The notes under the pieces: model-generated
What the model was told of the DNA's origin: nothing
The model's input: the letters and a program-made list of their open reading frames with translations, nothing else
Database searches by the model: none
Made by a program: the position numbers and the translations under genes
In this document: piece by piece, positions 3,598 to 57,275 of the stretch
How positions within the stretch are numbered: the first letter of the stretch is position 1
Layout of the letters: the number at the start of each line of letters is the position of its first letter
Assembly: GCA_036782995.1 (NCBI GenBank)
Contig: DAIPXZ010000001.1
Location: forward strand, 1-64,000
Reading direction: 5' to 3'
Length of the DNA stretch: 64,000 bases
Source of the DNA: Bacillota bacterium
Lineage (GTDB): Bacteria; Bacillota; Clostridia; Saccharofermentanales; Saccharofermentanaceae

Positions 3598-4182
3598 TTA
3601 ATTGTTTGTATACTTACTTTTTCTGCTCACTACAAGCAAAACAGCAGCACAGGTCAGCACCGAAATTGCAAGCCATGGGATGATGTTACTACTATCGCCC
3701 GTGGCAGGAATGTCCGCAGCAGCTGCTGTAACTTCAGCTGCCGTTATTGTAAATGGTGTATCAACGAAACCATCCGTGTAAAGAATGCGCAAAGTATGCG
3801 TCCCTACTGCGAGTGTATTAAGATAATCTGCATGAAGTGTAATGCTCGTGCTTCCCTCTACCTCTGTTTTGTCGAATTTATCTGCAGCAACAGCGACACC
3901 ATCAAGCATTATGCCCGTGAACTTGCTAAGCTCACCATTTACTTTAATAACCCAAGTGGTGTCTGTGTTCATCTGATGTTTGCCGTATGCACCTGCGAGA
4001 AGTAAGTAGCAATAATCCGAAAGTGTAACATCAGCATCTGTAATGTTGCTAGATGCCAAAGTGACTAAGCCGATTCCCGTATTATAGGACTCAGAGGAAA
4101 CATAGATGGTGTATTCGCCGGATTCTGTATCAAATGATGCAGGGAAGGAATAAACACCATTTGCATTCGTTTTTGTAGTCAT
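3598..4182 (-). pseudogene. C-terminal fragment of a cell-wall-anchored surface protein (IPATG sorting signal), with no signal peptide
   Basis: The ORF ends ...AADIPATGDSSNIIPWLAISVLTCAAVLLVVSRKSKYTNN, which is an LPxTG-like motif followed by a hydrophobic helix and a basic tail. The body looks like beta-rich adhesin repeats (TNANGVYSFPA...). The in-frame extension upstream (to a TAA near 4320) has no signal peptide or good start, and a terminator hairpin sits just upstream. Confidence 0.45.
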
Positions 4183-4440: not shown

Positions 4441-4608
4441 TCAAGATTTCTCCGGTTTCTGTTCCGCACTCTTGGCTTTCGTTTCAGATTCATCCGACTT
4501 TTTTTGAATGGCTTTGATTTTAGGTAAGATTTTCGGCGCGATAATCATCGCAGCAGCCACAGCAAAGATTCCAGCGACCAATTTTGCCACGATTACCGGA
4601 AAGACCAT
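4441..4608 (-). CDS. hypothetical small membrane protein (55 aa)
   Basis: Not in the ORF track because it is under 60 aa. MVFPVIVAKLVAGIFAVAAAMIIAPKILPKIKAIQKKSDESETKAKSAEQKPEKS is one hydrophobic helix plus a charged tail. It starts 3 nt after the eutH stop. The SD is weak or too close. Confidence 0.3.
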   Translation of the reverse strand: MVFPVIVAKLVAGIFAVAAAMIIAPKILPKIKAIQKKSDESETKAKSAEQKPEKS

Positions 4609-30980: not shown

Positions 30981-32531
30981 TTACAGTATCGGAGCAAACA
31001 GGCGGAGAATTTGGCGTGCGACACTCCACGTTGGGTTATAACGTAATTCTTCAGGAAGAAGCTCATCAGAGACATCAAGGATTTGCATGAAATCTTCTTT
31101 GACGGACGCAATAGAGGGCGTATCGAGAAGCCAGACACCACATTCAAAATGAAGATAGAGGCTGCGATAATCGAGGTTGACTGTACCTACTGTTGCGCAA
31201 CGATCATCAACGATGAAGGCTTTGCTGTGGATGAAGCCAGGTGTGTAGGTGTATATTTTGACCCCTGCGGTAACGAGATCACGGAAAGAGGAGCGCGAGG
31301 CCTGGTATATTATCCATTTGTCCCATTTTCCCGGTGTAACAATACGCACGTCTATCCCGCTTTTGGCGGCGAGACAAAGGGCTGAAATCATGGAGTCGTC
31401 GATAATGAGATATGGCGTACTAATGTAGATGTATTTTTGAGCGGTTGTAATCATATGCATGTAGACGTGTTCAGATACATGCTCTGAATCAATCGGGGAA
31501 TCACAATAGGGTTGCACGTAGCCTTGAGTAGCTGAAAGTGTCGGCGGAGCTTCGTTCTTCCACGGATAAAAATCATAATAGTTATCTGGCGCTTTCTGCG
31601 CGATTTGCCATATTTCAAGGAAAAAGAGTGTGAGCGACCAAGCCGCCTCACCACGAACCATAATGGCAGAATCCTTCCAGTAGCCATGCTTTTGTATGAC
31701 GTTGATATATTCGTCAGAGAGATTGATACCGCCCGTGAACGCGCATTTCCCGTCGATTGCCGTGATTTTTCGGTGGTCACGGTTGTTTTGAATGGTCGTC
31801 ACAAAGGGCGAAAACGGGTTGAAGATGATACACTTTATTCCTTTGTCCTGCATATTCTGACGAAAGTGTTTTGGCAAGGTTAAAAAACAGCCAACATCGT
31901 CATATATGATACGAACTTCGATGCCCTGCGCGGCTTTGCGTTCGAGAATATCAATAATCGCATCCCACATAACGCCATTTTCGATGATAAAGTATTCCAT
32001 GAAAATGTATTTCTCCGCTTTTTCGAGTTCCTCCAAGAGGCGCGGAAAGAAGACTTCTCCCGGAGTAAGAAATTCGGTCTCTGTATTGGAATATACGGGA
32101 AAGCCCTCCTGCATGTCGAGATAGCGCATGTTGACCGTATAGGAAGGAGCATCATGTCGTGCACGAAGATGAGCGGTTTTTACCGATGGTGGCAATCGAA
32201 AGAGAGGGCGTACCTCTGCTTCGACACGTGCCGATGCGCGCACATATGATTTTGTCGTTCGTTGGTTGTTAAAGAAGATGTACATGACACCGCCGATTGT
32301 CGGCATAAGCAAAACAAGAAAAACCCAAATGAGCTTATACCCGCCCTTGTCTTTTTTACTGACAACATAGAGCGCGACGAGCAAGCTTAAGAGACGAAAC
32401 AGCAATGAGATGATACCGGAATAGCTGCCACCAATTAAAATGAGAACCACAAGAACCCCGATTTCCAATAGAATCAGAAAGCAGAAAAATATGCGACGTA
32501 AGATAAATGAAGGAAACAAGTGATTTCTCAT
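30981..32531 (-). CDS. cls: cardiolipin synthase
   Basis: Two N-terminal TM helices and two PLD HKD motifs (HRKITAIDG and HSKAFIVDD). 516 aa. Confidence 0.9.
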   Translation of the reverse strand: MRNHLFPSFILRRIFFCFLILLEIGVLVVLILIGGSYSGIISLLFRLLSLLVALYVVSKKDKGGYKLIWVFLVLLMPTIGGVMYIFFNNQRTTKSYVRASARVEAEVRPLFRLPPSVKTAHLRARHDAPSYTVNMRYLDMQEGFPVYSNTETEFLTPGEVFFPRLLEELEKAEKYIFMEYFIIENGVMWDAIIDILERKAAQGIEVRIIYDDVGCFLTLPKHFRQNMQDKGIKCIIFNPFSPFVTTIQNNRDHRKITAIDGKCAFTGGINLSDEYINVIQKHGYWKDSAIMVRGEAAWSLTLFFLEIWQIAQKAPDNYYDFYPWKNEAPPTLSATQGYVQPYCDSPIDSEHVSEHVYMHMITTAQKYIYISTPYLIIDDSMISALCLAAKSGIDVRIVTPGKWDKWIIYQASRSSFRDLVTAGVKIYTYTPGFIHSKAFIVDDRCATVGTVNLDYRSLYLHFECGVWLLDTPSIASVKEDFMQILDVSDELLPEELRYNPTWSVARQILRLFAPIL

Positions 32532-32539
32532 TTTAAATG

Positions 32540-34159
32540 CTATTCATTATCCTCCGAATCGTCGCCTTCATCCTCAAAGGTATCACAAAGGAGCGACGGC
32601 GTGCTGAAGTAGTATCCTTGGAGATAGTCCGCACCTAAGCTGGTGCAAATCTCGGCAAGCTTGCGATTCTCGATGCCTTCCGCAACGACTTCAATCGCGG
32701 AGCTCTTCGCAAAATCGATGATGCTCTTCACGAGAGCGAGACCGCTTTCTGTTGTGACTTTACTAATCAGCGAGCGATCAATCTTGATTATATCAATTGG
32801 GAGATCCGTTACTAATCCATAGTTTGCCATGCCAGCTCCGAAACCGTCGATAACAATGGAAACACCGTGGTTACGAAGAAATTGTAGGTTTTCACGGGTT
32901 TGGTGTAAATCCGAAGCGAAGTTGCCGCGCAATTCGACCAAGACCTTCGCCGGGTCAACATTAGCTTCTTTGAGCGTCCGAATAAACTCCATGATGTTTT
33001 TTTCGTTAATGTCTTCTGCCGTCAGATTGATTGAAATCGGAAGGTCTTTGTATTGTGGTAGCTTCGAATACTCGATAAGACGCTTGGTCATGAAAATAGT
33101 AAGGTCGTGAATAACGGCAGTTTGTTCGATGACAGGAACGAATTCATCTGCCATCATACGAGTACCGTCTTTTCGTACCCATTTCGCTAACAATTCGATG
33201 CCGCCAACTTCATATGTGCCGCCGCGATGAACGGTCTGGTAAGCAGCTTGAATCGAGTTATTGCTCAATGCGTTCGGAAATTCGGATGCGATGCTGACGA
33301 TACCGCGATAGTAATCTTCCATACCAGGAGAGAAGCGGCAAATTCTTAATTCCTTCATAAAGGAATATCGCATAGCGACGTTGGAACGACTCATCAGTCT
33401 TTCCATGGTCTCCCCTTTTTCATGTGTTGCGAAGCCGCCGCGGAATGCGATGAACACCGGTACATTTTCGACATTAAGTGTCGTTTCATTTAGCTTTGAA
33501 AGTGTCACAATCAGGTCTTCGAGATTGTCTTTCTCGTTCGGATGACGTACAAGAACAGAAAATTCGAGTCCCGAATCATGGAAAATTTGCGCATGTGGAT
33601 ATGCTGTTAATGCCTTTTGTATTTCATTTGAAAAAGAAGCGATGATCTTATTATAGAATGTATATCCGAAAAATCCCTGTAGATCATTACCATCAACAAC
33701 GGACAATGTCACAAGAGAGACGGAACGGTCATCAAAGAGGATTTCTTGTTGTAATGCCTCATAATTTTTCAATCCAGTGAAACGATCAGTAGTTGCAAGA
33801 TTCATCATTTCGGCACTTCTTTTCCGGTTGTCGGTCGAGAAGGCAGATACGAGTAATGCAATAGCAATATAGATAAATACTCGAACACCCCACGCAAGAG
33901 AAAAGCTCCAAGAGGTCTGTTCGAGAACAATGGCCTCAATCGGTCCGACACCAACGCCGCAAATCAATGCAAATATGATACTGTTCGGTACAGAATACAG
34001 GCAGGACACAATCGCGATTAGAAGATACATAATATTGGCATATGCATTCGGTGTTCCGCCCGTCCGATATACGAGATAAACGACGGCCGCAGCCCCGATA
34101 TATGAAATCAGTATTGGAATGACCTTCATTAAACCATTTGTTGACTCATTCTTGCTCAT
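32540..34159 (-). CDS. membrane-anchored degenerate-GGDEF plus EAL domain protein (c-di-GMP phosphodiesterase candidate)
   Basis: N-terminal TM block. A GGDEF-like domain has SGLEF in place of GGDEF. The EAL domain has GIELLAKW, DGFG and ...EGIE motifs. Confidence 0.85.
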   Translation of the reverse strand: MSKNESTNGLMKVIPILISYIGAAAVVYLVYRTGGTPNAYANIMYLLIAIVSCLYSVPNSIIFALICGVGVGPIEAIVLEQTSWSFSLAWGVRVFIYIAIALLVSAFSTDNRKRSAEMMNLATTDRFTGLKNYEALQQEILFDDRSVSLVTLSVVDGNDLQGFFGYTFYNKIIASFSNEIQKALTAYPHAQIFHDSGLEFSVLVRHPNEKDNLEDLIVTLSKLNETTLNVENVPVFIAFRGGFATHEKGETMERLMSRSNVAMRYSFMKELRICRFSPGMEDYYRGIVSIASEFPNALSNNSIQAAYQTVHRGGTYEVGGIELLAKWVRKDGTRMMADEFVPVIEQTAVIHDLTIFMTKRLIEYSKLPQYKDLPISINLTAEDINEKNIMEFIRTLKEANVDPAKVLVELRGNFASDLHQTRENLQFLRNHGVSIVIDGFGAGMANYGLVTDLPIDIIKIDRSLISKVTTESGLALVKSIIDFAKSSAIEVVAEGIENRKLAEICTSLGADYLQGYYFSTPSLLCDTFEDEGDDSEDNE

Positions 34160-34313
34160 GTCCGCCTCTTTTCTGAATCAATTATCGATTCGTGAAATAA
34201 AGAACTGGTTTAATATGTGTAACCTTTTTGAAAAAAGAAAACTTACTTTAATGACCTCTCCATCTTATCAAAAATAATTTGTAAAGTCATCACGGTTTTG
34301 TGAACTGTCCATA

Positions 34314-34493
34314 CTATTTTTGTTTCCTTGCCATGCGAATCAAGAGAATCATTACAACAAGTAGTCCGATTGCCGCCAAACAAACACCGACGATCATGGG
34401 TAGATTTGAACCACGATCGCCGGTTATTGGTAGAAAATGTAGATTTATCATAATATCACCTGCTTTGCATTCTGTGAATAATACTATCCTCAT
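34314..34493 (-). CDS. mini-ORF (59 aa, or 45 aa from ATG 34451) that is essentially an isolated sortase sorting signal
   Basis: Not in the ORF track because it is under 60 aa. MRIVLFTECKAGDIMINLHFLPITGDRGSNLPMIVGVCLAAIGLLVVMILLIRMARKQK contains LPITG, a hydrophobic helix and a basic tail. AGGTGA lies 4-5 nt before the internal ATG. Confidence 0.3.
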   Translation of the reverse strand: MRIVLFTECKAGDIMINLHFLPITGDRGSNLPMIVGVCLAAIGLLVVMILLIRMARKQK

Positions 34494-34537
34494 TTCTATT
34501 ATGCACTGAATTGCAGGTTTGTCACAGACACAATAGC

Positions 34538-35722
34538 TTATGCGTTAATGCGTTTCTGCTTTGTGATAACCAGAGATAATGTGAAGAGGACTACAGCGAA
34601 TCCAAGCTGAATGCCGATGCATAGGATAATTTTTGATAGAGCATCACCGGAGAGGCTCGTAGCTTCTTTTACTAGGTTAATGGCACGTACATACCAATAC
34701 ACAGGCATGAAACTCGCTATGGTTTTGACCGAAGTTGCTAAGTATGTCTGATCAACGAAAACACCACTTATAAAGCAGAGGCCGAGGGAAGCAGCGTTTG
34801 ACACAAAGGTCATAAGGTTCTCATTACGAATTAATGCACTGATAAGCAAACCGAGTGAGAGGCAAACAATATAGAATACCAATGCATTGATGATCAACAT
34901 CCAAATACGAGGATTACTCATGTCGTCAAACATTGAGCTGGCACATATCGCGATTAATCCGAGGAAGATAAGGCCCAAGAAGGTCAGGCTGCCGACGAAA
35001 ATAAGGAAAGTCATCTTCGCGTTCTTGATGGGAGCGCAACGGATACGAGCTGCAGTCATTTGCGAGCGGAAAGCTTTGAAGATGGTATAGGTTCCGAGGA
35101 TGCAAATGCCGAGTGCAGCATAGGCAAAGAACGTAAAATGTCGAGATGCGTTTTCAAACGAAACACTTACATCAGATCCCTTCCAACTCGTTTCTACCGA
35201 TGATGAGATATCATTCTTTACATTTTCGGCGATGGCGCGGATTTGTTCATCACTTTGTACGCCATCTTCGCCCGTCGTTCCAATATAGATTCGGCTGATT
35301 TCGAAATACTTGTTGAGCTGCATTTCGATTTGCTGTTCGATGGAAGCCTGTTTGCTGCAGACACGTTTGATGGTTAATTCATGAGTATTACTTACAAAGT
35401 CGTCACCGAAGCCTTCCGGAATCACCAAAAGTAGATACTGTTCCCCCGAGCTTACAGCGTCCTCGGCAATTTCTTCGTCAGCATAATCCGTATTCACATT
35501 ATGAATCGTTTTCAAGTAGTCCAGAAAAGAGTCAGAGAATGCGTTACCCTCATCTTGATTGATGACTATAATGTCTTGTCTAATACTCATGAACTCTTTC
35601 GTCATGGTTTGTGATTCCTTTTGCGCCATAGAAAAGAAGAAAAACATAAACACTCCGATATATATGGCAAGAACCGGCCAATTACGAGCAATGACTTTGC
35701 AGACGTTTTTTATGATATGCAT
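34538..35722 (-). CDS. ABC-2-type transporter permease
   Basis: 394 aa. One N-terminal TM, a ~150-aa extracytoplasmic domain and 5 C-terminal TM helices, which is the typical ABC-2 (YhaP/NatB-like) topology. Confidence 0.75.
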   Translation of the reverse strand: MHIIKNVCKVIARNWPVLAIYIGVFMFFFFSMAQKESQTMTKEFMSIRQDIIVINQDEGNAFSDSFLDYLKTIHNVNTDYADEEIAEDAVSSGEQYLLLVIPEGFGDDFVSNTHELTIKRVCSKQASIEQQIEMQLNKYFEISRIYIGTTGEDGVQSDEQIRAIAENVKNDISSSVETSWKGSDVSVSFENASRHFTFFAYAALGICILGTYTIFKAFRSQMTAARIRCAPIKNAKMTFLIFVGSLTFLGLIFLGLIAICASSMFDDMSNPRIWMLIINALVFYIVCLSLGLLISALIRNENLMTFVSNAASLGLCFISGVFVDQTYLATSVKTIASFMPVYWYVRAINLVKEATSLSGDALSKIILCIGIQLGFAVVLFTLSLVITKQKRINA

Positions 35723-35733
35723 AATTATCCTCC

Positions 35734-36885
35734 TTAAATCGCAAGCGAGCGGTAGCTTTGCTTACGAAGAATCAATGTGACAACGAGAAGCATGGCAATA
35801 ATACCGGCACTGAGAATCCCTATGTTCATCCAGTAACGAGTCATATCCCTCACGTAGTAGAGTGAATAGAAAGCATCTGCAATCAAATTGCCTGGGTTAA
35901 TGTATTGCATAATCGGGGCCTTTTGAATGACTTTGGTTTTCACTGCAGAATCCATAAGACCCGCCAAATAACTGCAAATCATAGAGAAGGCGAGAACCAC
36001 TGCAATTTTTCCGCTTAGATTTGTTTTCAAAATCACTCCGATAAAGGCGCCGAGCAGGACACCGAAAACAACCGACAAAAACGAGGCCAGAATTAATAGT
36101 GCGATGTTGCTTCCAAAGCTCACACCAAGCCCAAATTTTAAATATGCAATCAAGAGAAGAATCGTGATGAATTGTACAAGAACCGTAGAGGAAAGTGTCA
36201 CAACGACGAGCTTCCATTTGTTTACAGGAGCCATGGATTGGCGCGCTGCCAAAGTCGATTGATTTGCCTGCAATATGGCTATATCGCGCAAGCCGGCAAA
36301 GGAAGCATAGAGGCAGGACATCGCAAGAAGTGCATAATAGAAAACCACCACAATATCGGCAATAGGGCCATCAGGAGCCTTCGAATAAGTATACTCCTGC
36401 GAAGTTAATTCGCTGATTTTGGCCAAGCTTGCAGGATTTGTTGTTGCGATGTTTGTAATCGTCTTGTTCATTTGGTTATACCAATCAAAGAATTCACGAA
36501 TCATCGTTTGCGATACTCCGGCTTTGGTAAACTGCAATGTGATTTCACCCTTTTCATTGAGCATCATCAAACCTTCAATTTCTTCGTTGGCGAGTGCTTT
36601 TTCTGCATCTTCTTGCGCGTCAAAATATGTGGTTTCAAACATCGCGTCTTCGTTGTCCTCTTTCGATTGTTCTTCGATTTGCGATTTGAGGGTCGTGTTC
36701 TGTTCGTACTGCGCATTGTTCACCACACCGAGCTTCGCGCGCTCAAATCCATTCGAAACATTCGAAAGCGCAAGCGAAAAGAATGTCGCGAGCAAAAACG
36801 GGAAAGCTATAGTCCAGAAAATGACACCCTTGTCGCGTAATTGCCCTTTGAGTCGGTAACCAAAAATACGGATTGCGGTATTCAT
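35734..36885 (-). CDS. ABC-2-type transporter permease
   Basis: 383 aa with the same topology as its neighbour. The two look like paralogs. Confidence 0.75.
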   Translation of the reverse strand: MNTAIRIFGYRLKGQLRDKGVIFWTIAFPFLLATFFSLALSNVSNGFERAKLGVVNNAQYEQNTTLKSQIEEQSKEDNEDAMFETTYFDAQEDAEKALANEEIEGLMMLNEKGEITLQFTKAGVSQTMIREFFDWYNQMNKTITNIATTNPASLAKISELTSQEYTYSKAPDGPIADIVVVFYYALLAMSCLYASFAGLRDIAILQANQSTLAARQSMAPVNKWKLVVVTLSSTVLVQFITILLLIAYLKFGLGVSFGSNIALLILASFLSVVFGVLLGAFIGVILKTNLSGKIAVVLAFSMICSYLAGLMDSAVKTKVIQKAPIMQYINPGNLIADAFYSLYYVRDMTRYWMNIGILSAGIIAMLLVVTLILRKQSYRSLAI

Positions 36886-36900
36886 ATTATTGTCCTCCTC

Positions 36901-37839
36901 TTATGCGTCACGAAGTTCTTTTCCGGTTATCTCTAGGAACACGTCATTTAACGAAGGGCGCTCACCGAAAATGCGGCCCGTCTTTATATCCCGTTTGCCC
37001 AGCTCATCCAAAAGTTTCGACATCGCATTGGTTTCTTGCTTCGCTTTTACTACGAGCATGCCCTCTTTGATTTTTGCCGAAGAAACAAATTCCATCTCCT
37101 TGACCCACGGAAGAACATCCTCCGGATTCGAGAGAAGAAGCTCTATCGATATTTTTTCTCCGATTCTTACCATATCGATTAGCTCTTGCTTGGTGCCCTG
37201 CGCGATGATCTGACCGTTATCCATGATGGCAATTCGATTACAAAGGTGTTCTACTTCTTCCATGTAATGCGAAGTATAGATAATCGTCGCTCCACTCTTA
37301 TTTAAATTCTTAATTCCTTCTAGAATGTTATTTCGACTCTGCGGGTCAACGGCCACAGTTGGCTCATCAAAGAAGATAAGCTTCGGCTTATGGGCAATGC
37401 CGCATGCGATATTCAATCTGCGAAGAAGTCCACCGGAGAGCTTCTTCGGATAGAATTTGCGAAAATCATTGAGACCAACCATCTCAATTGCCTCGTCAAC
37501 CAGTGCTTTGCGTTCCTTATTGTCTTTGATATACAGTCCGCAGAAGAAATCGACATTTTCAAGCACGGTCAATTCATCAATAACGGCAACATTTTGCATC
37601 ACGACACCGATATCTCGTTTCGATGCATAGCTCGATGGAGTCATCGGTTTCCCAAAAATCTCAATTTCACCTTTATCGTACGCAAGAAGAGAAAGCATAC
37701 AATTAATCGCTGTCGTTTTTCCGGAGCCGTTCGGTCCTAATAGTCCGAATACTTCGCCTTCCTGAATGTCGAGGCTTAAGTGGTCCAATGCGATTAAGTC
37801 GCCATATCTTTTTACTAAATCTTTTACATGAATAATCAT
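36901..37839 (-). CDS. ABC transporter ATP-binding protein
   Basis: GPNGSGKTT (Walker A), LSGGLLRRL (signature), LIFFDEPT (Walker B), plus a C-terminal accessory domain. Confidence 0.9.
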   Translation of the reverse strand: MIIHVKDLVKRYGDLIALDHLSLDIQEGEVFGLLGPNGSGKTTAINCMLSLLAYDKGEIEIFGKPMTPSSYASKRDIGVVMQNVAVIDELTVLENVDFFCGLYIKDNKERKALVDEAIEMVGLNDFRKFYPKKLSGGLLRRLNIACGIAHKPKLIFFDEPTVAVDPQSRNNILEGIKNLNKSGATIIYTSHYMEEVEHLCNRIAIMDNGQIIAQGTKQELIDMVRIGEKISIELLLSNPEDVLPWVKEMEFVSSAKIKEGMLVVKAKQETNAMSKLLDELGKRDIKTGRIFGERPSLNDVFLEITGKELRDA

Positions 37840-38093: not shown

Positions 38094-38828
38094 ATGAAAC
38101 ATGGGAAATCCAGTCTTATACGATTAGTAAGCATCGTGGTCGCCACGTTGGTGCTGGTTACCACTATTCTTGCTATTGGGAGACATTGCATTGAATCATA
38201 TGCAAATCGTGTACCCGCCCTCACCGATGAAGCATTAGCAACAATTGATTTTTTAAAAGCCAAGAACCTCATGATTGTCGCACATCCGGATGACGAAACG
38301 CTCTGGGGTGGCGCACATCTCTATTCTCATGATTATTTGGTCGTTTGCCTGACTGGCGGACGAAACTCCGAGCGCGCAAAAGAATTTGCTTCAGTGATGG
38401 AGGCCGCAGATTGCCAATTCTTGCAATTGTCTTACCCCGATAAAGTATGCGGCTTACGAAGTAATTGGAAAGCCGTTAGGGAGCAAATGGAAGCGGATAT
38501 CCAGAAAATCGTTGAAGCCAATGATTGGGCACTCATCGTGACGCATAATGCGAAGGGTGAATATGGCCACCAGCACCACATCATGACCCACGATTCTGTA
38601 TGCAAAGTGTATTACGCGTCCGATTCGATGGCAGATCTTTATGTTTTCGGTGATTATTATTCGGCAAAAAAACTGGAAACGGCCGATAATCTGCCACAAG
38701 AAATCGATGATAGTCGTCTGTGTTTTAAGGAAGACCTTCTTTCCCATTACAGCTCGCAGGACAATACCGTGAAAAAGCTTTCGCATATGAATGTGTATGA
38801 GGATTGGACACTCATCGAGGACAGATAG
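38094..38828 (+). CDS. PIG-L/LmbE-family deacetylase with an N-terminal signal-anchor helix
   Basis: MKHGKSSLIRLVSIVVATLVLVTTILAI (positive N-terminus plus a TM helix), then MIVAHPDDETLWGG and HNAKGEYGHQHH, the PIG-L motifs. Confidence 0.85.
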   Translation: MKHGKSSLIRLVSIVVATLVLVTTILAIGRHCIESYANRVPALTDEALATIDFLKAKNLMIVAHPDDETLWGGAHLYSHDYLVVCLTGGRNSERAKEFASVMEAADCQFLQLSYPDKVCGLRSNWKAVREQMEADIQKIVEANDWALIVTHNAKGEYGHQHHIMTHDSVCKVYYASDSMADLYVFGDYYSAKKLETADNLPQEIDDSRLCFKEDLLSHYSSQDNTVKKLSHMNVYEDWTLIEDR

Positions 38829-38831
38829 TTT

Positions 38832-41426
38832 ATGATAAATAACCGTGTTTTACACAAGAAAGACTACTTCTATATACTCATCATCGAATTGATTTTATGT
38901 ATGTTCCTTTTGACGTTGGCATGTCTGGGATACAAATTTGGCTCAACCATAGATTGGAATAACCAGCATTGGGCTATCCCCGATTATTTCCGAATGCTTT
39001 TTTACGATACACACGACCTTTTTCCGGATTTCGCCGCAAATCTCGGCGCCGGGCAAAATATATACTATCTATCCTATTATGGACTTTTTAGTCCGATCAT
39101 TCTGGTATCGTTTCTGTTCCCCAATGTGCCGATGGTCTTGTATATAATCGTTGTTAGCATTCTCTCTCTTTACGTCGATGTTGCTTTATTCTACTATTGG
39201 GTCAAGCCAAAATTTGGAGCGGATAATGCGTTTCTAGTAACATTTCTCTTCATCTTTTCGACGTCCCTGATTTTTCACAGCCACCGACATATCATGTTCG
39301 TCAATTACATGCCGTTTTTGCTTCTCGCCCTCATCGGTGTAGAACGCTTTCGAGCAACAAAGAGTCGGGTGCTCCTGATTATTTCTTCCCTATGTATCAT
39401 TCTCTCGAGCTACTTTTTCTCTGTCGGCGCGCTTATCGCTATAGTGCTCTATTTTTGGTATCTCGAAATCCGGGAATCGGATCGTTTCATGACGAAAGAA
39501 ATGATAAAGAAGCTTCTTTCATTCCTGATTGCGCCGATTATTGCGATATTTATGGCTGGCATCCTATTGTTACCGACAGCGTTCGTCTTACTGAACGGTC
39601 GCGATCCGAGTGCCGGCGGCAGCACGACCGCATGGCTCCCCCTTCTTTTCAAACCAATTCTGGGAAATATCGTATATAACCCTTATTCAATCGGAACAAT
39701 GGGATTTGGCGTCATCGCTGTCATCATCGGTCTCCTTTCAAGGAAAAAGCACGTCTTTATGTTATCCGTATGCTTTTCACTCTTCTTCTGCTGTCCGATA
39801 TTCATTTACCTGTTGAACGGTACACTCTATCTCGATGCAAAAGTGTTGATTCCGTTTCTACCGATATTTATGTTGATTGTTGGTAACGCAATCGATAGCA
39901 TATTCCAAAAGAAAGTGTCACGTCTTTCTTTATTAATTGCCAGTCTCGCTTGCACTTGCTTATTCGGAACGTCCTGTCTTTTCGGCCAAGACATGAATTA
40001 TTACACCATCATCATGGTTTCTTTTCCAATCGATGTAATCATGATTCTCGCAGGTATTGCATTATATAACCGTATTGGAAAACGTCGGACACTCGTCATT
40101 CCATTGATTTCCTTTTGCTTGATTGCTTGTATATCCATCAATGCAAAAGAAAAATACGTACCAATGGTCTCGGAATATACTGATTATGATTCAACCATCA
40201 ATGATTATATCAATCAAACACTGAAAGACGATTCTTCTTTCTATCGCTTCGGCTCTATTATTAAGACACACGACACCGTAAATTTCGCCTATAACACCGA
40301 GATGTATCGTACGACCATCTATTCGTCGCTTCACAACCGTTATTTAAGCGACTTCTATTTCGATGAGCTCTATAACGAAAACCAATATCGGAATGCCGCC
40401 CTGATGACTGAATCACGTAATTATCTTTATAACATGTATATGGGGCAAAAATACTTGGTCGGGGTCGCAGGAAAGAAGATACCCGGGTACTCCGCCGTGA
40501 CAACTATTGGTTCGACAAGCCTTTTCATGACCAACTACGCCTTTCCTGTCGGATATGCCAGCGATAAAATCATGAGTGAAGCCGAGTTCAACACTCTAGA
40601 ATACCCTTATGACATCGAGGCATTGATGGAATACACCATTGTCGACACGCCCTATTTTGACAGCGGATTCTCATCGGAAATCACTGCAATGACACTGTCT
40701 TCGGTCCCGGAATTAGTCGAACAATTACCTGTTAAGAAGCTGTCAGAAGATGATTATGTTGTCTCATCTGAAACAAGTATCCGCTTTAATTATGACTTGC
40801 CGGAGCCGTTGACTCAAAGCGTCGTGCTCCTTCGTTTCAACGTAAACAACGTCATCAACGAAGGAAAATCACCGACCGTCAAGATTTCCATCAATGGCAC
40901 CACCAACAAATTAACAAACGCCGACGGAAAATATTTCAACGGAAACAACAGCTTCGAGTACGTCTTTATTGCCGGTAAAACACCTATGAAGAACTTCCGA
41001 ATTCGCGTATCCGAAGGTGCCTACCAAATTTCCGATATTCAAGTTTATGTCATGCCACTTGCAAATATTCGGGAAATATCAAACGACCTGGATGCCTATA
41101 ACATCGACCGCGAGACCACACAAGGCAACATTTATTCCGGCACGATTGATGTTACGAAGGATGGATATTTCGTCATGTCTGTCCCCTATGACGAGGGATT
41201 CGATATCATCATTGACGGTCAATCCGTCCCTGTCGAAAGAGTCGATAAAGATTTCATCGGCGCAAAAATCGAGGCAGGACACCACACCATACGTATCGAA
41301 TTCCATGCGCCTCTCAAACGGGAAGGCACCATCCTTTCCGCCATCGGGACGTCCATGTTTCTCGTAGTGATTGGATGTGAAATTGCTCGCTCCCTACGTC
41401 GGGAACGAGCAATCAAAAAGAAATAA
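38832..41426 (+). CDS. YfhO-family polytopic membrane protein (putative glycosyltransferase)
   Basis: 864 aa with about 13 TM helices followed by a ~420-aa extracytoplasmic domain and a final TM, which is YfhO-like architecture. It starts 3 nt after the PIG-L stop. Confidence 0.75.
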   Translation: MINNRVLHKKDYFYILIIELILCMFLLTLACLGYKFGSTIDWNNQHWAIPDYFRMLFYDTHDLFPDFAANLGAGQNIYYLSYYGLFSPIILVSFLFPNVPMVLYIIVVSILSLYVDVALFYYWVKPKFGADNAFLVTFLFIFSTSLIFHSHRHIMFVNYMPFLLLALIGVERFRATKSRVLLIISSLCIILSSYFFSVGALIAIVLYFWYLEIRESDRFMTKEMIKKLLSFLIAPIIAIFMAGILLLPTAFVLLNGRDPSAGGSTTAWLPLLFKPILGNIVYNPYSIGTMGFGVIAVIIGLLSRKKHVFMLSVCFSLFFCCPIFIYLLNGTLYLDAKVLIPFLPIFMLIVGNAIDSIFQKKVSRLSLLIASLACTCLFGTSCLFGQDMNYYTIIMVSFPIDVIMILAGIALYNRIGKRRTLVIPLISFCLIACISINAKEKYVPMVSEYTDYDSTINDYINQTLKDDSSFYRFGSIIKTHDTVNFAYNTEMYRTTIYSSLHNRYLSDFYFDELYNENQYRNAALMTESRNYLYNMYMGQKYLVGVAGKKIPGYSAVTTIGSTSLFMTNYAFPVGYASDKIMSEAEFNTLEYPYDIEALMEYTIVDTPYFDSGFSSEITAMTLSSVPELVEQLPVKKLSEDDYVVSSETSIRFNYDLPEPLTQSVVLLRFNVNNVINEGKSPTVKISINGTTNKLTNADGKYFNGNNSFEYVFIAGKTPMKNFRIRVSEGAYQISDIQVYVMPLANIREISNDLDAYNIDRETTQGNIYSGTIDVTKDGYFVMSVPYDEGFDIIIDGQSVPVERVDKDFIGAKIEAGHHTIRIEFHAPLKREGTILSAIGTSMFLVVIGCEIARSLRRERAIKKK

Positions 41427-41450
41427 AACCAAATTTTTGTTTTTTCAGAA

Positions 41451-42509
41451 TCAGGCAACCTGATGTACATATTCCTCACTGGTTGCGATGACCTCACAAT
41501 TGTTCACGTAATCCAATATCTCAATGCTAAAAGATATGGTTTCCAGATCTTCCTGTTCAATCCCGAGAGCTTCCAGACTGTCCGCCATGACAAACAAGTA
41601 CGTGTAGCCATTTGTACCACCCAAAATCGTTTGCGCGTAGACGCTAAAATCATCATTTCCGTTTATTTTGACACTGTCACAATATGTCATGAAAATATCA
41701 TCACTATCGTTCATGCAGTAAATTTCGATACAATATAGATCCTGACTCCATTCGCCTTCACCAACAATTACTGAGAATCCATTTTCATCGTAGATTGTAG
41801 TTCCAATGGCCGAAAAACTATAATCCTTATCATCATAACCATCTGTAATAACGGAAGCTGTCTCATTCCCAATCAAGCCGTATGAATACGCATCTAAGAC
41901 TTCGATATACAACAATACTTCTCCGACTGTATTAATACTTGTGATGTCATTATCCTCTATTGATAAGTAAACATAATCCTGTACGGTTTCACCCGCAGGA
42001 ACCGTAACGTTGGATTCGTTCGTCGTCATTATGCCGTTTGCTGCGACGCCTGCTATATCGAAGACGATATCAGTATCACTTTGATTCGTTACTTCATAAT
42101 CAAGAACATCCATCCCATATGCCGATTCTGCTGTTGTATAGGAAAGAGCCGTGGCTGTCACTCCATCTGCGTCATAAATCACTTGTTCTTCGATATTCAC
42201 AGGTGTGCGTGGTTCACGCATTACAAATTCATCATCTTCACGCGGAATCGATGTCGTCGGGTCATCCGTCTCTTCCGGTACTATTGATTTTTCCGGTGTT
42301 TCTGGTTCTGTTGGTTCTTGATTTCTGTTCTCTTCGGACTCTTCGTCCTCGTCGTCTTCGTCATCTTCCTCAGCGTTGTCACGATCACTGGTTTTCTCGT
42401 CAGAATCCTCATCCTTGGAATAACTATTCGATTTACAGGCAACACTCATTGCTGCAATCATGGATATGCAAATTACTACACATAATCCCTTTAAAAGATA
42501 CTTTTTCAT
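41451..42509 (-). CDS. lipoprotein of unknown function with an acidic linker
   Basis: MKKYLLKGLCVVICISMIAAMSVAC (lipobox), an Asp/Glu-rich ~70-aa linker, then beta-rich domains. Confidence 0.6.
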   Translation of the reverse strand: MKKYLLKGLCVVICISMIAAMSVACKSNSYSKDEDSDEKTSDRDNAEEDDEDDEDEESEENRNQEPTEPETPEKSIVPEETDDPTTSIPREDDEFVMREPRTPVNIEEQVIYDADGVTATALSYTTAESAYGMDVLDYEVTNQSDTDIVFDIAGVAANGIMTTNESNVTVPAGETVQDYVYLSIEDNDITSINTVGEVLLYIEVLDAYSYGLIGNETASVITDGYDDKDYSFSAIGTTIYDENGFSVIVGEGEWSQDLYCIEIYCMNDSDDIFMTYCDSVKINGNDDFSVYAQTILGGTNGYTYLFVMADSLEALGIEQEDLETISFSIEILDYVNNCEVIATSEEYVHQVA

Positions 42510-42620
42510 TTTTGTTTCCTCCGTTCAGGTATACATTTATTTCGTAACCCCATACGCATCATAGCAAAAGATTTATGAATGCTCTGTAAACGCCACATAT
42601 GCGAGGTATTTCATTTGTGA

Positions 42621-43912: not shown

Positions 43913-45094
43913 ATGTCTGTTTTGATTGATAAGGGCATGCTCGTCATATGTTGCGTCGCGGTTCTTTTCTCCAGCGACATAAATCCTTACTGCGTGATTT
44001 ATTTATTGATCGCATTTGCGCTTTCTTTAGCAGTTACATATATATCCTCGCGGACATTCACAGTTGCCGTATCTATTGCTTACGGCATTCTCTCTCTCTT
44101 CTTTCCGCCGCTTTGCTGTTTTTTCCCTCTATTCCTATATGATTTGATTGTCGTGAAATCGCCGTGGCCGAGTTTGCTTTTTCTTTTTTCGCTGGTCAAT
44201 GCAACTTGGTTAATAGACGACTTGTCTTTACTTCATTTATTCCTCGTGTGCGGATTATGTGGTGTGGCTGGTCTTTTGTCCGTTCGCACTACGGAGGCTC
44301 GCCGAAAAACCACAGAATTGAATTCTTTGCGTGATGGCCTCACATCCGAGCAACGAACGCTAAAAAAAGCGAATCACGAACTTATGGATAAGCAAGATTA
44401 CGAAGTGCATGTCGCCATATTAGGCGAGCGCAATCGTATTTCCCGTGAGTTACATGACAGTATCGGTCACGTGCTTACTCGTTCAATTCTCCAAGCCGGA
44501 GCACTCTCTGCTGTGGCAAACCGTCTTTCTCACGAAGAGAGTTCAGAAAAAGAGACCGCAAACAATACCGAAGAGCTTTCCGAGAAAGCCCAGAATGTGC
44601 AAGCCTTGCAGGATGGCATCACCGCCTTACAAGCATCTCTTTCAGACGGTATGACACAGATTCGAGAGAGCATACACAATTTACATGAGGACTCCATGGA
44701 TATGAAAACCGAGCTTGAAGCCGTCCTTCGTGGATTTACGCAATGTCCGGTCGAGCTCACTGTCGCCACAACGACTTTGCCGCCGAAAAATATTCGTTTC
44801 GCCATGATATCCATTGTTAAAGAATGCATGTCCAATGTAACCAAACATGCCCCCGACGCGACACAGGTCACAGTCACTTTACGTGAGCATCCGGTTATGT
44901 GGCAATTGATTATTGAAGATAATGGAGAAGCCGTACGCGGTAAAGATCTCCAATCGTTACTAATTTCGCAATCTGCCGGTATCGGAATCACGAGTATTCG
45001 TGCGCGTGTGGAAGAATTACATGGTCGTTCTGCCATCTCGACAGAAGACGGCTTCTGTCTTCACATCACTTTCCCCAAGGAGGACAACAAATGA
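43913..45094 (+). CDS. HisKA_3-type sensor histidine kinase (DesK/LiaS-like)
   Basis: Polytopic N-terminus, H-box ERNRISRELHDSIGHVL and a C-terminal HATPase domain (DNGEA...GIGITSI). Confidence 0.85.
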   Translation: MSVLIDKGMLVICCVAVLFSSDINPYCVIYLLIAFALSLAVTYISSRTFTVAVSIAYGILSLFFPPLCCFFPLFLYDLIVVKSPWPSLLFLFSLVNATWLIDDLSLLHLFLVCGLCGVAGLLSVRTTEARRKTTELNSLRDGLTSEQRTLKKANHELMDKQDYEVHVAILGERNRISRELHDSIGHVLTRSILQAGALSAVANRLSHEESSEKETANNTEELSEKAQNVQALQDGITALQASLSDGMTQIRESIHNLHEDSMDMKTELEAVLRGFTQCPVELTVATTTLPPKNIRFAMISIVKECMSNVTKHAPDATQVTVTLREHPVMWQLIIEDNGEAVRGKDLQSLLISQSAGIGITSIRARVEELHGRSAISTEDGFCLHITFPKEDNK

Positions 45095-45774
45095 AAACAC
45101 GCTTAATCATTATCGATGATGATCGTTTTATCGTATCCGCACTTACGACCATACTCTCCGCCGACACGGCCATCGAGGTCGTTGCAACCGGCAATGATGG
45201 AAGCGAGGCGTTAACGCTCTGGCGGGCTCATCAACCAGACGTATTACTCATGGATATCCGTATGCCGGGAACAGATGGATTACAAGGCGCAGCCGAGGTG
45301 ATTACAGCATTTCCGGAAGCGAAAATTCTTTTCCTCACGACCTTCTCAGACGATGAATATATCGTTAAAGCATTACGCATCGGTGCACGTGGCTATTTAC
45401 TCAAAGAGAAGTTCGAATCCATTGCCCCCGCGATTTCCGCGGTGCGTGCGGGACAAAGCGTTTTCGGCGAAGAGATTATCTCCCGTATCACCTTCCCTGT
45501 CACCTCACTTTACGATGATCAGCCGGAAAAAGGCGGTGACGTCGCCACAGTTGGATCAAAATCCATTCCGACTGATGACCCTCTTTATGCATGTCTCACG
45601 CCGAGAGAAGTGAACATTTTGGAAGCAATCAGCGCCGGATTAAGCAATAAAGAGATTGCCGAGCAACTGTTCTTAAGTGAAGGAACCGTACGTAACAGTA
45701 TCACATCCATGCTCGACAAACTCGAGCTCAAAAGCCGAACGCAGCTTGCCATTTACTATCTGAAACGACAATAA
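45091..45774 (+). CDS. LuxR/NarL-family response regulator
   Basis: Receiver domain (LIIIDDDRF...VLLMDIRMPG) plus a C-terminal LuxR HTH (LTPREVNILEAISAGLSNKEIAEQLFLSEGTVRN). ATGA overlap with the kinase gene. Confidence 0.9.
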   Translation: MKTRLIIIDDDRFIVSALTTILSADTAIEVVATGNDGSEALTLWRAHQPDVLLMDIRMPGTDGLQGAAEVITAFPEAKILFLTTFSDDEYIVKALRIGARGYLLKEKFESIAPAISAVRAGQSVFGEEIISRITFPVTSLYDDQPEKGGDVATVGSKSIPTDDPLYACLTPREVNILEAISAGLSNKEIAEQLFLSEGTVRNSITSMLDKLELKSRTQLAIYYLKRQ

Positions 45775-49067: not shown

Positions 49068-50534
49068 TTACAACACCGGCTTTTCGAGTGCATTCTCCAA
49101 TGCATCGATGATGATCTCGATGGTTTTTACGCGGGCATAAAGCTTATCATTGCCTTCAATAATATGCCAGGGCGCATATTCCGTCGATGTTTTCTGTAGC
49201 ATATCATTGACGGCCTCTTCGTATGCATCCCATTTCTCGCGGTTACGCCAATCTTCGTCTGTGATCTTCCATTGCTTTTCAGGTGTTTCTTGGCGTTCGT
49301 TGAAACGAGCAAGCTGGACGTCTTTATCAATTTGAAGCCAAAATTTTATCACGATTGTGCCTTCCGATGCCAACTGATATTCAAATTCATTCATTTCACG
49401 GTAGGCGCGTTTCCATTCCTTTTGATCGCAAAAGCCTTCTATGCGTTCTACCATAACACGCCCGTACCACGTACGGTCAAAAAGTGCTATATGCCCGGTT
49501 TTCGGCATTTTCTCCCAGAAACGCCATAAATAATGGCGATTCTTTTCTGGTGGGGTCGGCGATGCAACAGGATTTACTTCATATCCGCGTGCATCGAGTG
49601 CTTGCGTCACGCGTTTTATGGCACCACCCTTCCCTGCTGCGTCCCATCCTTCAAAAAGCAAGACGACGGGGATGTGGCGGGCGTAGATGTGATTATGAAG
49701 CTCACGCAGACGTTTCTGATCCTTTTTCAGACGCTCCTCGTAGTCTTCGCGGGGTAGCGCAAGAGATAGGTCAACCTCGTGTAGAAGCGGCATAGATATC
49801 GGCTTCGGGAGTTTCGGTACATATTTTGCAACCGCTTTCTTGTCGATTCCGTTGTGCAAACGATCGGAGATGGCGTCGATTAAATAGCGAAGTGCGTAGA
49901 ATTCACTGATAAGTGGTTTTTTCGCTTCGATAACATGCCATGGAGCAAAAGGCGAATCCGTCTTTTCCATTATTTCTTGGTAAGCCGCCTTAACTTCGCA
50001 ATAGTTCTTCGCTTCCCATGCATCATGCTCTGAAACCCGCCATGCGGTTGCTTGGTCAGCGAGCAGGCGATTGAGTCTGCATTTCTGTTCATCTTCATCG
50101 ATATTCAGGAAGATTTTCACTAAAAGATATCCGTTTTCAGTCAATGACCGCTCAAATTGCTTAACAAATTCGATACGACGCTTATATGTATCTGACGTGA
50201 TGCTTCGTTCCAAATTTGAAGTAGCTAGAATTGACGGCCATCCGCTATCTAGGAACGTGAACTTTCCTTGTTCAGGAATGGTTCGAAAATAGCGATAAAG
50301 AAAGTGTCTTCTCGTTTCTTCCGGACTCGGACGATCCATAGAACAGACGCGATAAAAGCGCGGATCGATACAAGTAATTAAGCGATTAATCAATGAACCC
50401 TTGCCCGATGCGGCAAAGCCTTCCACGAGAACAAATACTGAAATCCCCGCCTTTTTGATTTCCTGTTGTAGAGTAAGGAGTTCTCCTTGCATTTCTGAAA
50501 TTTCTGCCTTCATCTGCTTTTTTTCTTCACGCAT
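49068..50534 (-). CDS. tandem-domain PPK2-family polyphosphate:nucleotide phosphotransferase
   Basis: Two PPK2 repeats, each with a P-loop-like motif (VLVEGFAASGKGS and LLFEGWDAAGKGG). Start at ATG 50534, behind AAGGAGG. It overlaps the upstream gene stop (ATGCGTGA). Confidence 0.85.
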   Translation of the reverse strand: MREEKKQMKAEISEMQGELLTLQQEIKKAGISVFVLVEGFAASGKGSLINRLITCIDPRFYRVCSMDRPSPEETRRHFLYRYFRTIPEQGKFTFLDSGWPSILATSNLERSITSDTYKRRIEFVKQFERSLTENGYLLVKIFLNIDEDEQKCRLNRLLADQATAWRVSEHDAWEAKNYCEVKAAYQEIMEKTDSPFAPWHVIEAKKPLISEFYALRYLIDAISDRLHNGIDKKAVAKYVPKLPKPISMPLLHEVDLSLALPREDYEERLKKDQKRLRELHNHIYARHIPVVLLFEGWDAAGKGGAIKRVTQALDARGYEVNPVASPTPPEKNRHYLWRFWEKMPKTGHIALFDRTWYGRVMVERIEGFCDQKEWKRAYREMNEFEYQLASEGTIVIKFWLQIDKDVQLARFNERQETPEKQWKITDEDWRNREKWDAYEEAVNDMLQKTSTEYAPWHIIEGNDKLYARVKTIEIIIDALENALEKPVL

Positions 50535-51678
50535 ACGATTGTACCTCCTTGTACTTCTCATCGACTCGATTCATTAATTCGAGTTCATCAAGGATTTCCC
50601 CTTGATATGGGTACGTATTCCTCATGCTCTCGAATTGTTCACGTATGTTTTGGGCGTCATTCGTATTATTGTCCTCGAGTAACGCCTTCGCATATTGATA
50701 GCGCAAAACGGTAGGATTTTCCTTCATCTTCTGAATGAAGTCCATTGTTGTTTTTGATAAAAAAGAGTTCCGTTCATCTTTGGGCTGTTCGGTAAGCAAT
50801 GAAAGGTAGGTTAACTCCATATCGATAAAGGCACCTATTATTCCGCTTCTTGGTATCTCCGTATGATTATGAAGCCACTTTAGTTTTTCATAAGCTTCAT
50901 CTAATCGACCATTGATGATGTAATAGCAACAACTGTTTACGTATTGCGTGGTAATTATTGCTGTCGTCATCTCTTTTTCCGTAGGAAAAAAGTAATTGGC
51001 TTCGTCTATATCTTTCATGCGAGCATCTTCAGCGTATTCCGCAAGTGTAATCATCTGTGTGTAGAATACACGAATCATCAATGGGTTACGTTTACAGGCC
51101 AAGATATTCGCTCCGTCGTTATTCAACATTTTGCCGGAAAACGGAATGCCATTTATTACGGCAGGAATCAACGCCATTGCCGCAGCAGTGATAAAAAACG
51201 CACGGCTAATCGGTGCAATCGGCAAGAGACAGAGTCCGCCAAATATACCGGCACACAACATGTTCATGAGCACTCCGCCGAGTTGATAAAGATTAATCGG
51301 ATTTTTTCCGTTCTCTTGATATAGCGGTGGTTTCATTAAGCATTGACCCGCCGTTCCGGTAAGCTTATATTTCTTGATCGCGAGCTTTCCATTCTTCTTT
51401 ATCCAAACAGTATTGTATACTCGGAAGCTTATAAAAGAATATCCGGAAATCAAGCCCGCAAACAAGTGTCCTAGTTCATGGAGAACAAGTTGAATATTAT
51501 ACAAAACAATGCTGACCATACAAAAGACAAGCGTAACCAAGAAACCATGTGTTCCAATAGAATTCGGATATGCCCCCTTTATGATCGCATTGATTATCAT
51601 CATCGAGCCAAAGTAGATGATTACCAATATTGTGCATATAAGAAAACAATTCACTGCATTGATTTTCTTTGATTCCAT
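50527..51678 (-). CDS. M50/site-2-protease-like polytopic membrane protein with a helical soluble C-terminal domain
   Basis: HELGH at aa 67-71 sits at the end of a TM helix, and a later NNDGANIL resembles the second M50 motif. It has 4-5 TM helices and then ~170 aa of helical, TPR-like sequence. Confidence 0.55.
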   Translation of the reverse strand: MESKKINAVNCFLICTILVIIYFGSMMIINAIIKGAYPNSIGTHGFLVTLVFCMVSIVLYNIQLVLHELGHLFAGLISGYSFISFRVYNTVWIKKNGKLAIKKYKLTGTAGQCLMKPPLYQENGKNPINLYQLGGVLMNMLCAGIFGGLCLLPIAPISRAFFITAAAMALIPAVINGIPFSGKMLNNDGANILACKRNPLMIRVFYTQMITLAEYAEDARMKDIDEANYFFPTEKEMTTAIITTQYVNSCCYYIINGRLDEAYEKLKWLHNHTEIPRSGIIGAFIDMELTYLSLLTEQPKDERNSFLSKTTMDFIQKMKENPTVLRYQYAKALLEDNNTNDAQNIREQFESMRNTYPYQGEILDELELMNRVDEKYKEVQSYA

Positions 51679-51714
51679 AAATACTCCTTATTGCACAAGT
51701 CTCGAACTTGTAGC

Positions 51715-53187: not shown

Positions 53188-53256
53188 AACAATTCACTCC
53201 TATCATTCAGACGGTAAGGATGAAAAGTCTTCGTTTGAGAATGCTCGAAAGAATGA

Positions 53257-57183: not shown

Positions 57184-57275
57184 GTTGGGTTTATCCCTCC
57201 TGTCGCGAAAGCGTGATCGCCTTACTGAGGCCTTCGCTAACGATATCTCTACTAGAGCAATTATAGTCAAACTAT

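Follow-up and report, generated by a model that had tools for sequence, protein, structure and literature searches.

A 45-codon open reading frame that is a sortase sorting signal and holds a terminator-like hairpin: a possible surface-protein relic in an uncultured Bacillota species

Introduction

Why would a bacterial genome keep a complete LPXTG sorting signal that has nothing to sort? The question is raised by a very short open reading frame (ORF), here the mini-ORF, on the minus strand of a 64,000-nucleotide (nt) stretch of DNA from an uncultured Bacillota species (positions 1 to 64,000 of contig DAIPXZ010000001.1, GenBank assembly GCA_036782995.1; referred to as the window). An earlier note on this DNA had described the ORF as almost nothing but a sorting signal and had offered two ideas for it, namely a surface-protein gene decayed to its last remnant, or a small peptide retained with the neighbouring ABC-2 transporter. 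The sorting signal of that account stands, but a terminator-like RNA hairpin and U-rich tract at codons 10–22 plus the next three had been overlooked, and with them the likeliest role of the DNA changes. We tentatively favour, at somewhat less than an even chance, the reading that the mini-ORF is a relic, fixed in this one species, of a gene for a sortase-anchored surface protein, and that its DNA now serves as the terminator of the ABC-2 operon. Comparisons within the species were made on 16 sequences, comprising the window and 15 further contigs from different samples.

Results

The mini-ORF and its product

The 59-codon version of the mini-ORF occupies 34314..34493 on the minus strand, a strand that the earlier note had not stated, and its translation agrees with the one quoted there. 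The conserved form is shorter, with 45 codons at 34314..34451 (minus, stop codon at 34314-34316), and encodes MINLHFLPITGDRGSNLPMIVGVCLAAIGLLVVMILLIRMARKQK. Its product reads, in order, LPITG, a 7-residue linker, 20 hydrophobic residues (MIVGVCLAAIGLLVVMILLI), RMARKQK and the stop. By translation the LPITG pentapeptide comprises residues 7-11 (34419..34433, minus), the hydrophobic segment residues 19-38 (34338..34397, minus) and the basic tail RMARKQK, with four K/R, the last seven codons (34317..34337, minus); pentapeptide and tail are invariant across strains. The predicted sortase site, with the cut after T, lies in the peptide MINLHFLPITGDRGSN. Just six residues (MINLHF) stand ahead of the motif, so that signal peptide and passenger are both absent, as had been claimed, and the hydrophobic core of the 59-residue extension is too short for a signal peptide. 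The distance from the permease stop codon is 44 nt for the 59-codon and 86 nt for the 45-codon form, which bears out the position just downstream of the transporter operon. Compared with its homologues that permease is complete, and the 86 nt to the ATG leave no room for a passenger. On the other side, the gene of an EAL phosphodiesterase begins 154 nt downstream of the mini-ORF.

The start codon at 34449-34451 is preceded at a distance of 3 nt by the Shine-Dalgarno (SD) sequence AGGTGAT (34455..34461, minus), a perfect 7-nt complement of the 16S ribosomal RNA 3' end. The internal ATG with an SD that the earlier note had pointed out was thus confirmed, and the duplex with the anti-SD amounts to -12.5 kcal/mol. 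An SD as strong is found at 0.47% of the 2783 ATGs of the window, and it outranks 87.5% of the starts of long ORFs. It is identical in all strains; the 61 nt before it hold seven variable sites. The upstream ATG of the 59-codon form (34491..34493, minus) has no SD (-1.7 kcal/mol) and is not conserved, reading ACG in five of the 16 same-species sequences (L001, L003, L014, L015 and L016). Because the strong SD belongs to the internal ATG and the upstream ATG is neither equipped with one nor conserved, the 45-residue form is the real unit. The same 45-residue ORF is present in GenBank as HOO61165.1 and HPE38051.1, from a Bacillota metagenome-assembled genome (MAG), under the name 'LPXTG cell wall anchor domain-containing protein'.

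Quality of the sorting signal

The TIGR01167 model (NCBI LPXTG_anchor) scored the mini-ORF peptide at 22.4 bits against a cut-off of 15.9, which is above the 18.3-20.8 bits of the species' own bona fide sorting signal. Destroying the motif (LPITG to AAIAA) abolished the match, as did scrambling the linker; the score fell to 14.3 bits when the linker was replaced by alanines, to 15.0 when the order of the helix was shuffled and to 15.1 when the helix was turned into poly-alanine. Swapping in the permease helix, or the helix segment of a small ORF located after EutH, left no match at all. An ordered linker and an ordered helix are thereby worth about 7-8 bits each of the score. The strict pattern of LPxTG, hydrophobic stretch, basic tail and stop occurred in 3.3e-4 of block-shuffled windows (6000 shuffles, local composition kept). 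Among 91 chance peptides that fit the sorting-signal pattern, with the motif forced to LPxTG, a single one matched TIGR01167 at E<=0.02, and no score came up to 22.4 bits. The Pfam model Gram_pos_anchor misses the mini-ORF and also an intact 529-residue substrate of the species, and since the latter is missed too we regard this model as uninformative here. Translation and TIGR01167 together uphold the view that the ORF is roughly a sorting signal alone, and this signal is real and of high fidelity, no trivial look-alike.

The likeness to known LPXTG sorting signals extends to the pentapeptide, a linker of the D-x-x-S-N-x-P type, a helix of about 20 residues with a G/A/L pattern and the basic tail. 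The mini-ORF differs from them in that the signal is the whole protein and the coding DNA holds a terminator-class hairpin. Given this fidelity, descent from a sortase-substrate gene appears, on the sequence, to be the best-supported origin and is well supported. A six-frame pattern scan of the 64 kb found two sorting signals, the mini-ORF and IPATGD at 3598..3711, and in doing so verified that the TGD after the motif is common to both, as had been noted for the ORF at 3598..4182. As to the enzyme, no sortase was detected by Pfam among the window ORFs scanned, the six-frame scan held no credible TLxTC motif, and none is listed in the gene tables precomputed for the retrieved loci.

Outside the species the peptide stands alone. 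The 59-residue query retrieved only the species' own 45-residue cluster from 5.8 billion proteins, and an exhaustive phmmer search of 1.84 billion representatives returned no homologue beyond the species. Three cytoplasmic TPR proteins (P0055-P0057) that phmmer brought up were rejected as spurious, consisting of repeats only, without helix or tail. Their repeat, NLxxxYxxLPTGDRGENLxxAI, matched mini-ORF residues 8-29 by chance.

A terminator-like hairpin inside the reading frame

Folding of the region revealed a 14-bp GC-rich RNA hairpin, ACCGGCGAUCGUGG[UUCAAAUCUAC]CCAUGAUCGUCGGU, at 34386..34424 (minus). It coincides with codons 10-22, the 5' arm encoding T-G-D-R-G, the loop S-N-L and the 3' arm P-M-I-V-G, and is abutted on its 3' side by the U-rich tract GUUUGUUUGG (34376..34385, minus), which encodes V-C-L and has six U in 10 nt, interrupted by a G. 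About one third of the mini-ORF overlaps hairpin and tract. The folding energy is -26.2 kcal/mol (z -4.3; none of 200 shuffles was equally stable) and reaches -28 kcal/mol (z -6.2) in the haplotype of L007. The opposite strand folds at only -17.6 kcal/mol, since two G-U pairs turn into A-C mismatches there, and the greater stability on the transcribed strand indicates that the structure is tuned to that strand. The loop measures 11 nt in the minimum-energy fold of the window haplotype and 8 nt where an extra U-A or C-G pair forms (centroid fold, L007). One compensatory pair was seen (34410/34401, U-A to C-G, in one haplotype), and all four variable sites of the hairpin span sit in the loop or its closing pair, possibly reflecting just two mutational events.

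A window-wide scan for structures of <= -20 kcal/mol gave 11 clusters. Six other simple long hairpins lie just past minus-strand genes (42627, 41379, 26667, 22761, 4341 and 3546), and the hairpin of the mini-ORF is of the same class, with -26 vs -28 to -31 kcal/mol. It lies 112 nt past the permease stop, i.e. after the last gene of the ABC-2 operon, and the scan found no second hairpin of <= -20 kcal/mol between that stop and the start of the EAL gene. The U-tract is comparable to UUUGCUGUUUG, the tail of the terminator behind 3598..4182. In its GC-rich 14-bp stem, U-rich tract and post-operon place the structure resembles Rho-independent terminators; it differs from them by lying within an ORF that has a strong SD, by its 11-nt loop in the window haplotype and by the G in its U-tract. 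No pairing that could act as an antiterminator appeared in a 406-nt fold, where the arms of the terminator find no partner in a weak upstream hairpin (-15.2 kcal/mol, z -2.0), and Rfam gave nothing meaningful at gathering scores over the whole window or at relaxed E-values over 34000-34700. The main role of the mini-ORF DNA is probably transcription termination, as predicted from the structure and its place.

How such a locus would behave in the cell, that is its translation, membrane topology and sortase cleavage, we infer as follows. Ribosomes probably initiate on the mini-ORF, because the ribosome-binding site is very strong. Where the transcript has been terminated, they would come to its end near codon 25; read-through transcripts would give the 45-residue peptide. 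By the positive-inside rule the peptide would insert N-out/C-in with no need of a signal peptide, the 18-residue N-tail (one D, one R) being without net positive charge and the C-tail carrying four K/R; a sorting signal translocated by Sec takes up the same topology. LPITG would then be presented to sortase, and a cut between T10 and G11 would give a decapeptide as acyl-intermediate and leave a C-peptide of 35 residues in the membrane. The Pf3 coat protein, with 44 residues, spans the membrane once with its N-terminus out, by Sec-independent, YidC-assisted insertion (PMC8548208). The mini-ORF peptide is like it in its approximately 45 residues, an 18-residue N-tail uncharged on balance, one helix and a short basic C-tail; the two have no sequence relation, and the likeness concerns a possible mode of action, not family. 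By this analogy the absent signal peptide would in itself be no barrier to sortase access.

Conservation and polymorphism

The 45-codon ORF is unbroken in all 16 same-species sequences, which carry four protein haplotypes (H5Q; L17I; L17M). Variable sites per 100 nt number 8.1 in the 86 nt before the ORF, 4.35 in the mini-ORF and 0.56-1.6 in the flanking genes. Three of those in the mini-ORF are synonymous and three nonsynonymous, giving a ratio of nonsynonymous to synonymous polymorphism (pN/pS) of 0.33 vs 0.10 for the neighbours, and its pN of 0.0295 is near the pS of the flanking genes (0.035). These six changes are as likely under constraint as under neutrality. By codon usage the ORF ranks at the 2nd percentile among coding segments and at the 92nd among off-frame segments, a rough likelihood ratio of about 1. 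No sign of selection on the peptide itself was seen. From the U-tract to the EAL start, 218 nt hold two single-nucleotide polymorphisms and one poly-T indel, where about 7.6 changes are expected neutrally (Poisson p ~0.02); as there are fewer changes than this expectation, these 218 nt are constrained, be it as coding or as EAL regulatory sequence.

The upstream side also carries a mosaic divergent haplotype block (34549..34658 and 34477..34534, minus), present in L001, L003, L014, L015 and L016, with about 9-11% differences vs <1.6% elsewhere. It runs over the last ~120 nt of the permease gene and the intergenic stretch before the mini-ORF and takes in codon 5 of the latter, and its sequence suggests DNA imported from a diverged lineage.

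Apart from copies of 100% identity, the adjacent permease has no homologue that is more than 30% identical, so that the data contain no intermediate relatives, and a permease-anchored synteny search of genome and metagenome contigs retrieved only loci of 28% identity. An intact adhesin at the position of the mini-ORF, which the earlier note had envisaged in relatives, was not found: a full-length LPXTG gene occupies it in 0 of the 16 same-species sequences and in none of the distant loci. The distant ATPase-permease-permease cassettes (L017-L021), often accompanied by a HisKA_3/GerE two-component system, have no sorting-signal ORF, and the closest of them, L017, has a full-length EAL orthologue nearby (41% identity) and likewise lacks an ORF of this kind. 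The link to the ABC-2 genes is therefore not conserved, and the idea of a peptide kept with the transporter was not supported.

A second sorting signal and its deletion origin

The other sorting signal of the window belongs to a 194-residue IPATGD ORF without signal peptide (3598..4182, minus), which is the 3' remnant of an LRR_5/CarboxypepD_reg surface protein. Its sequence matches residues 336-529 of a 529-residue protein at 98% identity; this protein, intact in L022 and L025, has LRR_5 repeats and a CarboxypepD_reg domain besides a signal peptide. The window strain has suffered a 4.16-kb deletion at the microhomology TGCGATGA (junction ~4179-4191), which also took a 658-residue GGDEF-EAL gene, the gene of a 206-residue membrane protein and codons 1-335 of the 529-codon gene; all three deleted genes are intact in L022 (7450..12292) and L025. 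On inspection the remnant has no obvious SD. L003 and L025, which come from one sample, have the intact LRR protein alongside the same 45-codon ORF. This species thus makes sorting-signal-bearing remnants by deletion and, because other strains encode an intact IPATGD protein with a signal peptide, presumably possesses a functional sortase pathway or did so until recently.

Pseudogenes are common among sortase-dependent proteins; in Lactobacillus salivarius UCC118 they make up 6 of 10 (PMC3619620). The mini-ORF resembles such pseudogene remnants in that the 5' part is gone and a 3' fragment with the signal is left. It differs in that none of the strains has an intact ancestor, in being trimmed almost exactly to the signal and in having an SD in the top 0.5%.

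Discussion

Origin of the mini-ORF and rival explanations

The locus is odd in three independent ways, namely signal quality, strength of the ribosome-binding site (top 0.5%) and an internal terminator, and no one hypothesis predicts all three of these improbable features, which coincide here. Decay of a surface-protein gene, with reuse of the remnant as terminator, accounts for a sorting signal that lacks cargo, for an orphan peptide that drifts near-neutrally and for the polymorphism pattern of the hairpin, through a mechanism documented in the species; the remnant idea is the better of the two earlier ones, short of proof. The quality of the signal and the deletion remnants speak for the remnant idea; the lack of a full-length ancestor at the position speaks against it. 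Several further points count against a relic that now terminates transcription. A top-0.5% SD and a conserved start are odd in a relic, unless an in-frame deletion kept the native start region, and MINLHF does not resemble a signal-peptide start. All 16 sequences keep the ORF intact, with three amino-acid changes that are conservative and spare motif, helix and tail. A 14-bp stem is improbable in formerly coding DNA and must have arisen after the decay, with the signal still above cut-off, and about 55 kb of coding sequence holds no comparable sense-strand hairpin with U-tract. As a terminator the hairpin has the flaws of an 11-nt loop and a U-tract broken by G, and a consensus terminator scan, which requires a loop of 3-8 nt, left it uncalled because of the loop length.

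Could the peptide instead be at work? A leaderless, minimal sortase substrate or regulator, which would insert N-out and be cleaved or compete for sortase, and whose wall-linked decapeptide MINLHFLPIT or 35-residue C-peptide would have a role, possibly in signalling to the EAL phosphodiesterase, seems unlikely to us, though a modest chance remains. Such a function would agree with the strong and conserved SD and ATG, the high-fidelity signal and the ORF intact in 16 sequences with changes confined to positions 5 and 17. It would also suit the position on the same strand as the EAL and cardiolipin synthase genes, with the embedded hairpin as the sole candidate terminator between permease and EAL gene, and the sortase implied by the intact LRR protein of other strains. 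PMC11502775, relating work of Hall et al. 2019, describes how the C-peptide of the LPXTG adhesins SspA/B of Streptococcus gordonii is sensed in the membrane by an intramembrane histidine kinase, and PMC4591827 puts sortase substrates of Clostridioides difficile under control of cyclic di-GMP (c-di-GMP). The S. gordonii case has a counterpart here in the G-starting membrane fragment predicted beside the gene for a sensor with membrane-embedded helices only; the neighbour of the mini-ORF differs in being an EAL phosphodiesterase, not a kinase, and no passenger is anchored. Against a functional substrate stand the terminator-class hairpin in the middle of the ORF, the lack of homologues beyond the species, a pN close to the neutral rate of the neighbours, atypical codon usage and the L017 EAL orthologue that has no such ORF nearby, and the literature searches made brought up no precedent for a stand-alone LPXTG peptide or small protein. 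A more specific version, in which the C-peptide or the occupancy of sortase would report surface assembly to the intramembrane-sensing EAL phosphodiesterase and the terminator would gate the amounts of both peptide and phosphodiesterase, strikes us as quite improbable.

The remaining explanations take the sorting signal, or its peptide, to be beside the point. That an operon terminator and a T-rich spacer came to spell it by coincidence, the ORF being a young 'proto-gene' or no gene and its GenBank name a false positive, is in our view rather unlikely. Of the 39 residues of the signal, 12-13 are fixed by hairpin and U-tract; the ORF is an orphan whose polymorphism is near-neutral and whose codon usage is poor; the SD could be due in part to the best promoter-like match (TGaTATTAT), which overlaps it; and where many windows are screened, rare chance events will appear. 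The chance tests argue the other way, with the strict pattern in 3.3e-4 of shuffled windows, one of 91 chance peptides near the TIGR01167 cut-off and none at 22.4 bits, the 7-8 bits contributed by each of linker and helix order, and an SD of this strength at 0.47% of ATGs. The mini-ORF could also be the cis-acting leader ORF of an attenuator, where translation into the 5' arm would block the terminator and tune read-through, from the ABC-2 operon or from local promoter-like sites, into the EAL and cardiolipin synthase genes, the peptide being irrelevant. The layout would fit, running from promoter-like sites over a strong SD and an ORF with terminator to a conserved 218-nt leader and the EAL gene, as would near-neutral evolution of the peptide beside an invariant start region and stem, and the E. 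coli pyrBI leader, with 44 codons that read through their own attenuator, is a precedent. We nevertheless hold an attenuator to be improbable: the folds contain no antiterminator pairing, the high-fidelity sorting signal is left unexplained, a weak promoter-like site lies 3' of the hairpin, and in B. subtilis-type Firmicutes transcription and translation are reportedly uncoupled, so that the ribosome would arrive too late. Very unlikely, finally, is a small hydrophobic peptide unrelated to sortase, be it a partial copy of the last permease helix, a type I toxin-like peptide or a small-RNA locus, with LPITG as an accident. The peptide does align with the permease C-terminus (LSGDALSK...ITKQK; p=0.028 vs segment-preserving shuffles), which is its second-best tblastn match in the window, it has a weak holin_2 match (E=0.027), and the promoter-like site with the hairpin could yield an RNA of ~70 nt. 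The permease 3' end shows no nucleotide similarity (p=0.89), however, and LPITG joined to the permease helix or to that of the EutH-side ORF fails TIGR01167; the opposite strand has no antisense terminator and only weak promoter matches, and Rfam is silent. A tandem copy of the last permease helix was accordingly rejected as the main explanation, the protein similarity being marginal, the nucleotide similarity nil and the hybrid peptide unmatched by the model. The evidence also argues against a type I toxin-antitoxin system, as neither a plus-strand terminator nor an Rfam match points to a convergent antisense RNA.

Neighbouring genes and other features of the window

By Pfam the ABC-2 operon consists of an ABC ATPase (36901..37839, minus; ABC_tran) and two permeases (35734..36885 and 34538..35722, minus; both ABC2_membrane_3), the second being the one next to the mini-ORF. 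On the far side lie the gene of the 539-residue GGDEF/EAL protein (32540..34159, minus), which has four N-terminal transmembrane (TM) helices, a degenerate GGDEF domain and an EAL domain, and, following it, a cardiolipin synthase gene (30981..32531, minus). Two sigma-70-like sites were identified as consensus matches: GTGACA-16-CATAAT at 34525..34498 (minus), and TTCACA-17-TGaTATTAT at 34478..34450 (minus), which overlaps SD and ATG. The divergent haplotypes have one change in each of the two -35 boxes. A weak promoter-like site is also found 3' of the hairpin, and the plus strand near the mini-ORF has only 9-of-12 promoter matches and no terminator.

Both sorting-signal loci adjoin c-di-GMP genes, the mini-ORF that of the 4-TM EAL protein and the LRR protein that of a 7TM-like GGDEF-EAL protein (L022 7450..9426), an adjacency that may be coincidence. 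A HisKA_3 kinase and a GerE-type regulator (43913..45774, plus) form, together with the ABC ATPase and the two ~385-residue ABC2_membrane_3 permeases, a cassette that recurs in distant Clostridia (L019 988..6164) and that we take to resemble the LnrJK-LnrLMN (YfiJK-YfiLMN) antibiotic-sensing exporter of B. subtilis.

A second large indel polymorphism of the species is the 4.39-kb segment at 38204..42595, which contains a PIG-L deacetylase, a YfhO-family membrane protein (864 residues) and a 352-residue ORF and is missing from L003, where DUF4003 abuts the ABC ATPase. Another small ORF, of 55 residues with a single helix (MVFPVIVAKLVAGIFAVAAAMIIAPK...; 4441..4608, minus), lies between EutH and its terminator. 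L027 has it among its called genes, and it stops, unlike the mini-ORF, before the terminator hairpin. Three consecutive large ORFs of 383, 490 and 1337 residues (50527..57270, minus) are essentially without Pfam match, the sole one being a marginal RNHCP match of the 1337-residue ORF (24.1 bits vs a 24.0-bit cut-off). At the end of a 350-kb MAG contig (L023 10877..12639), which is just past position 1 of the window, stand a Zn_ribbon_recom recombinase and a CI-like helix-turn-helix repressor; this pair, beside the variable EutH-PfkB region, may mark the edge of an integrated element.

Implications

The locus is an unusual case of known kinds, LPXTG remnants and intrinsic terminators, and not a new system. 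It calls for caution in annotation, as the name 'LPXTG cell wall anchor domain-containing protein' that GenBank gives to a 45-residue product is no proof of a surface protein. If the peptide were functional, it would be the first sortase substrate without signal peptide and cargo and would offer a handle on sortase sensing coupled to c-di-GMP. If the mini-ORF is a relic, as we tentatively favour, the locus would combine genome decay with reuse: a surface-protein gene reduced to its anchor signal, whose DNA ends the transcription of the neighbouring operon.

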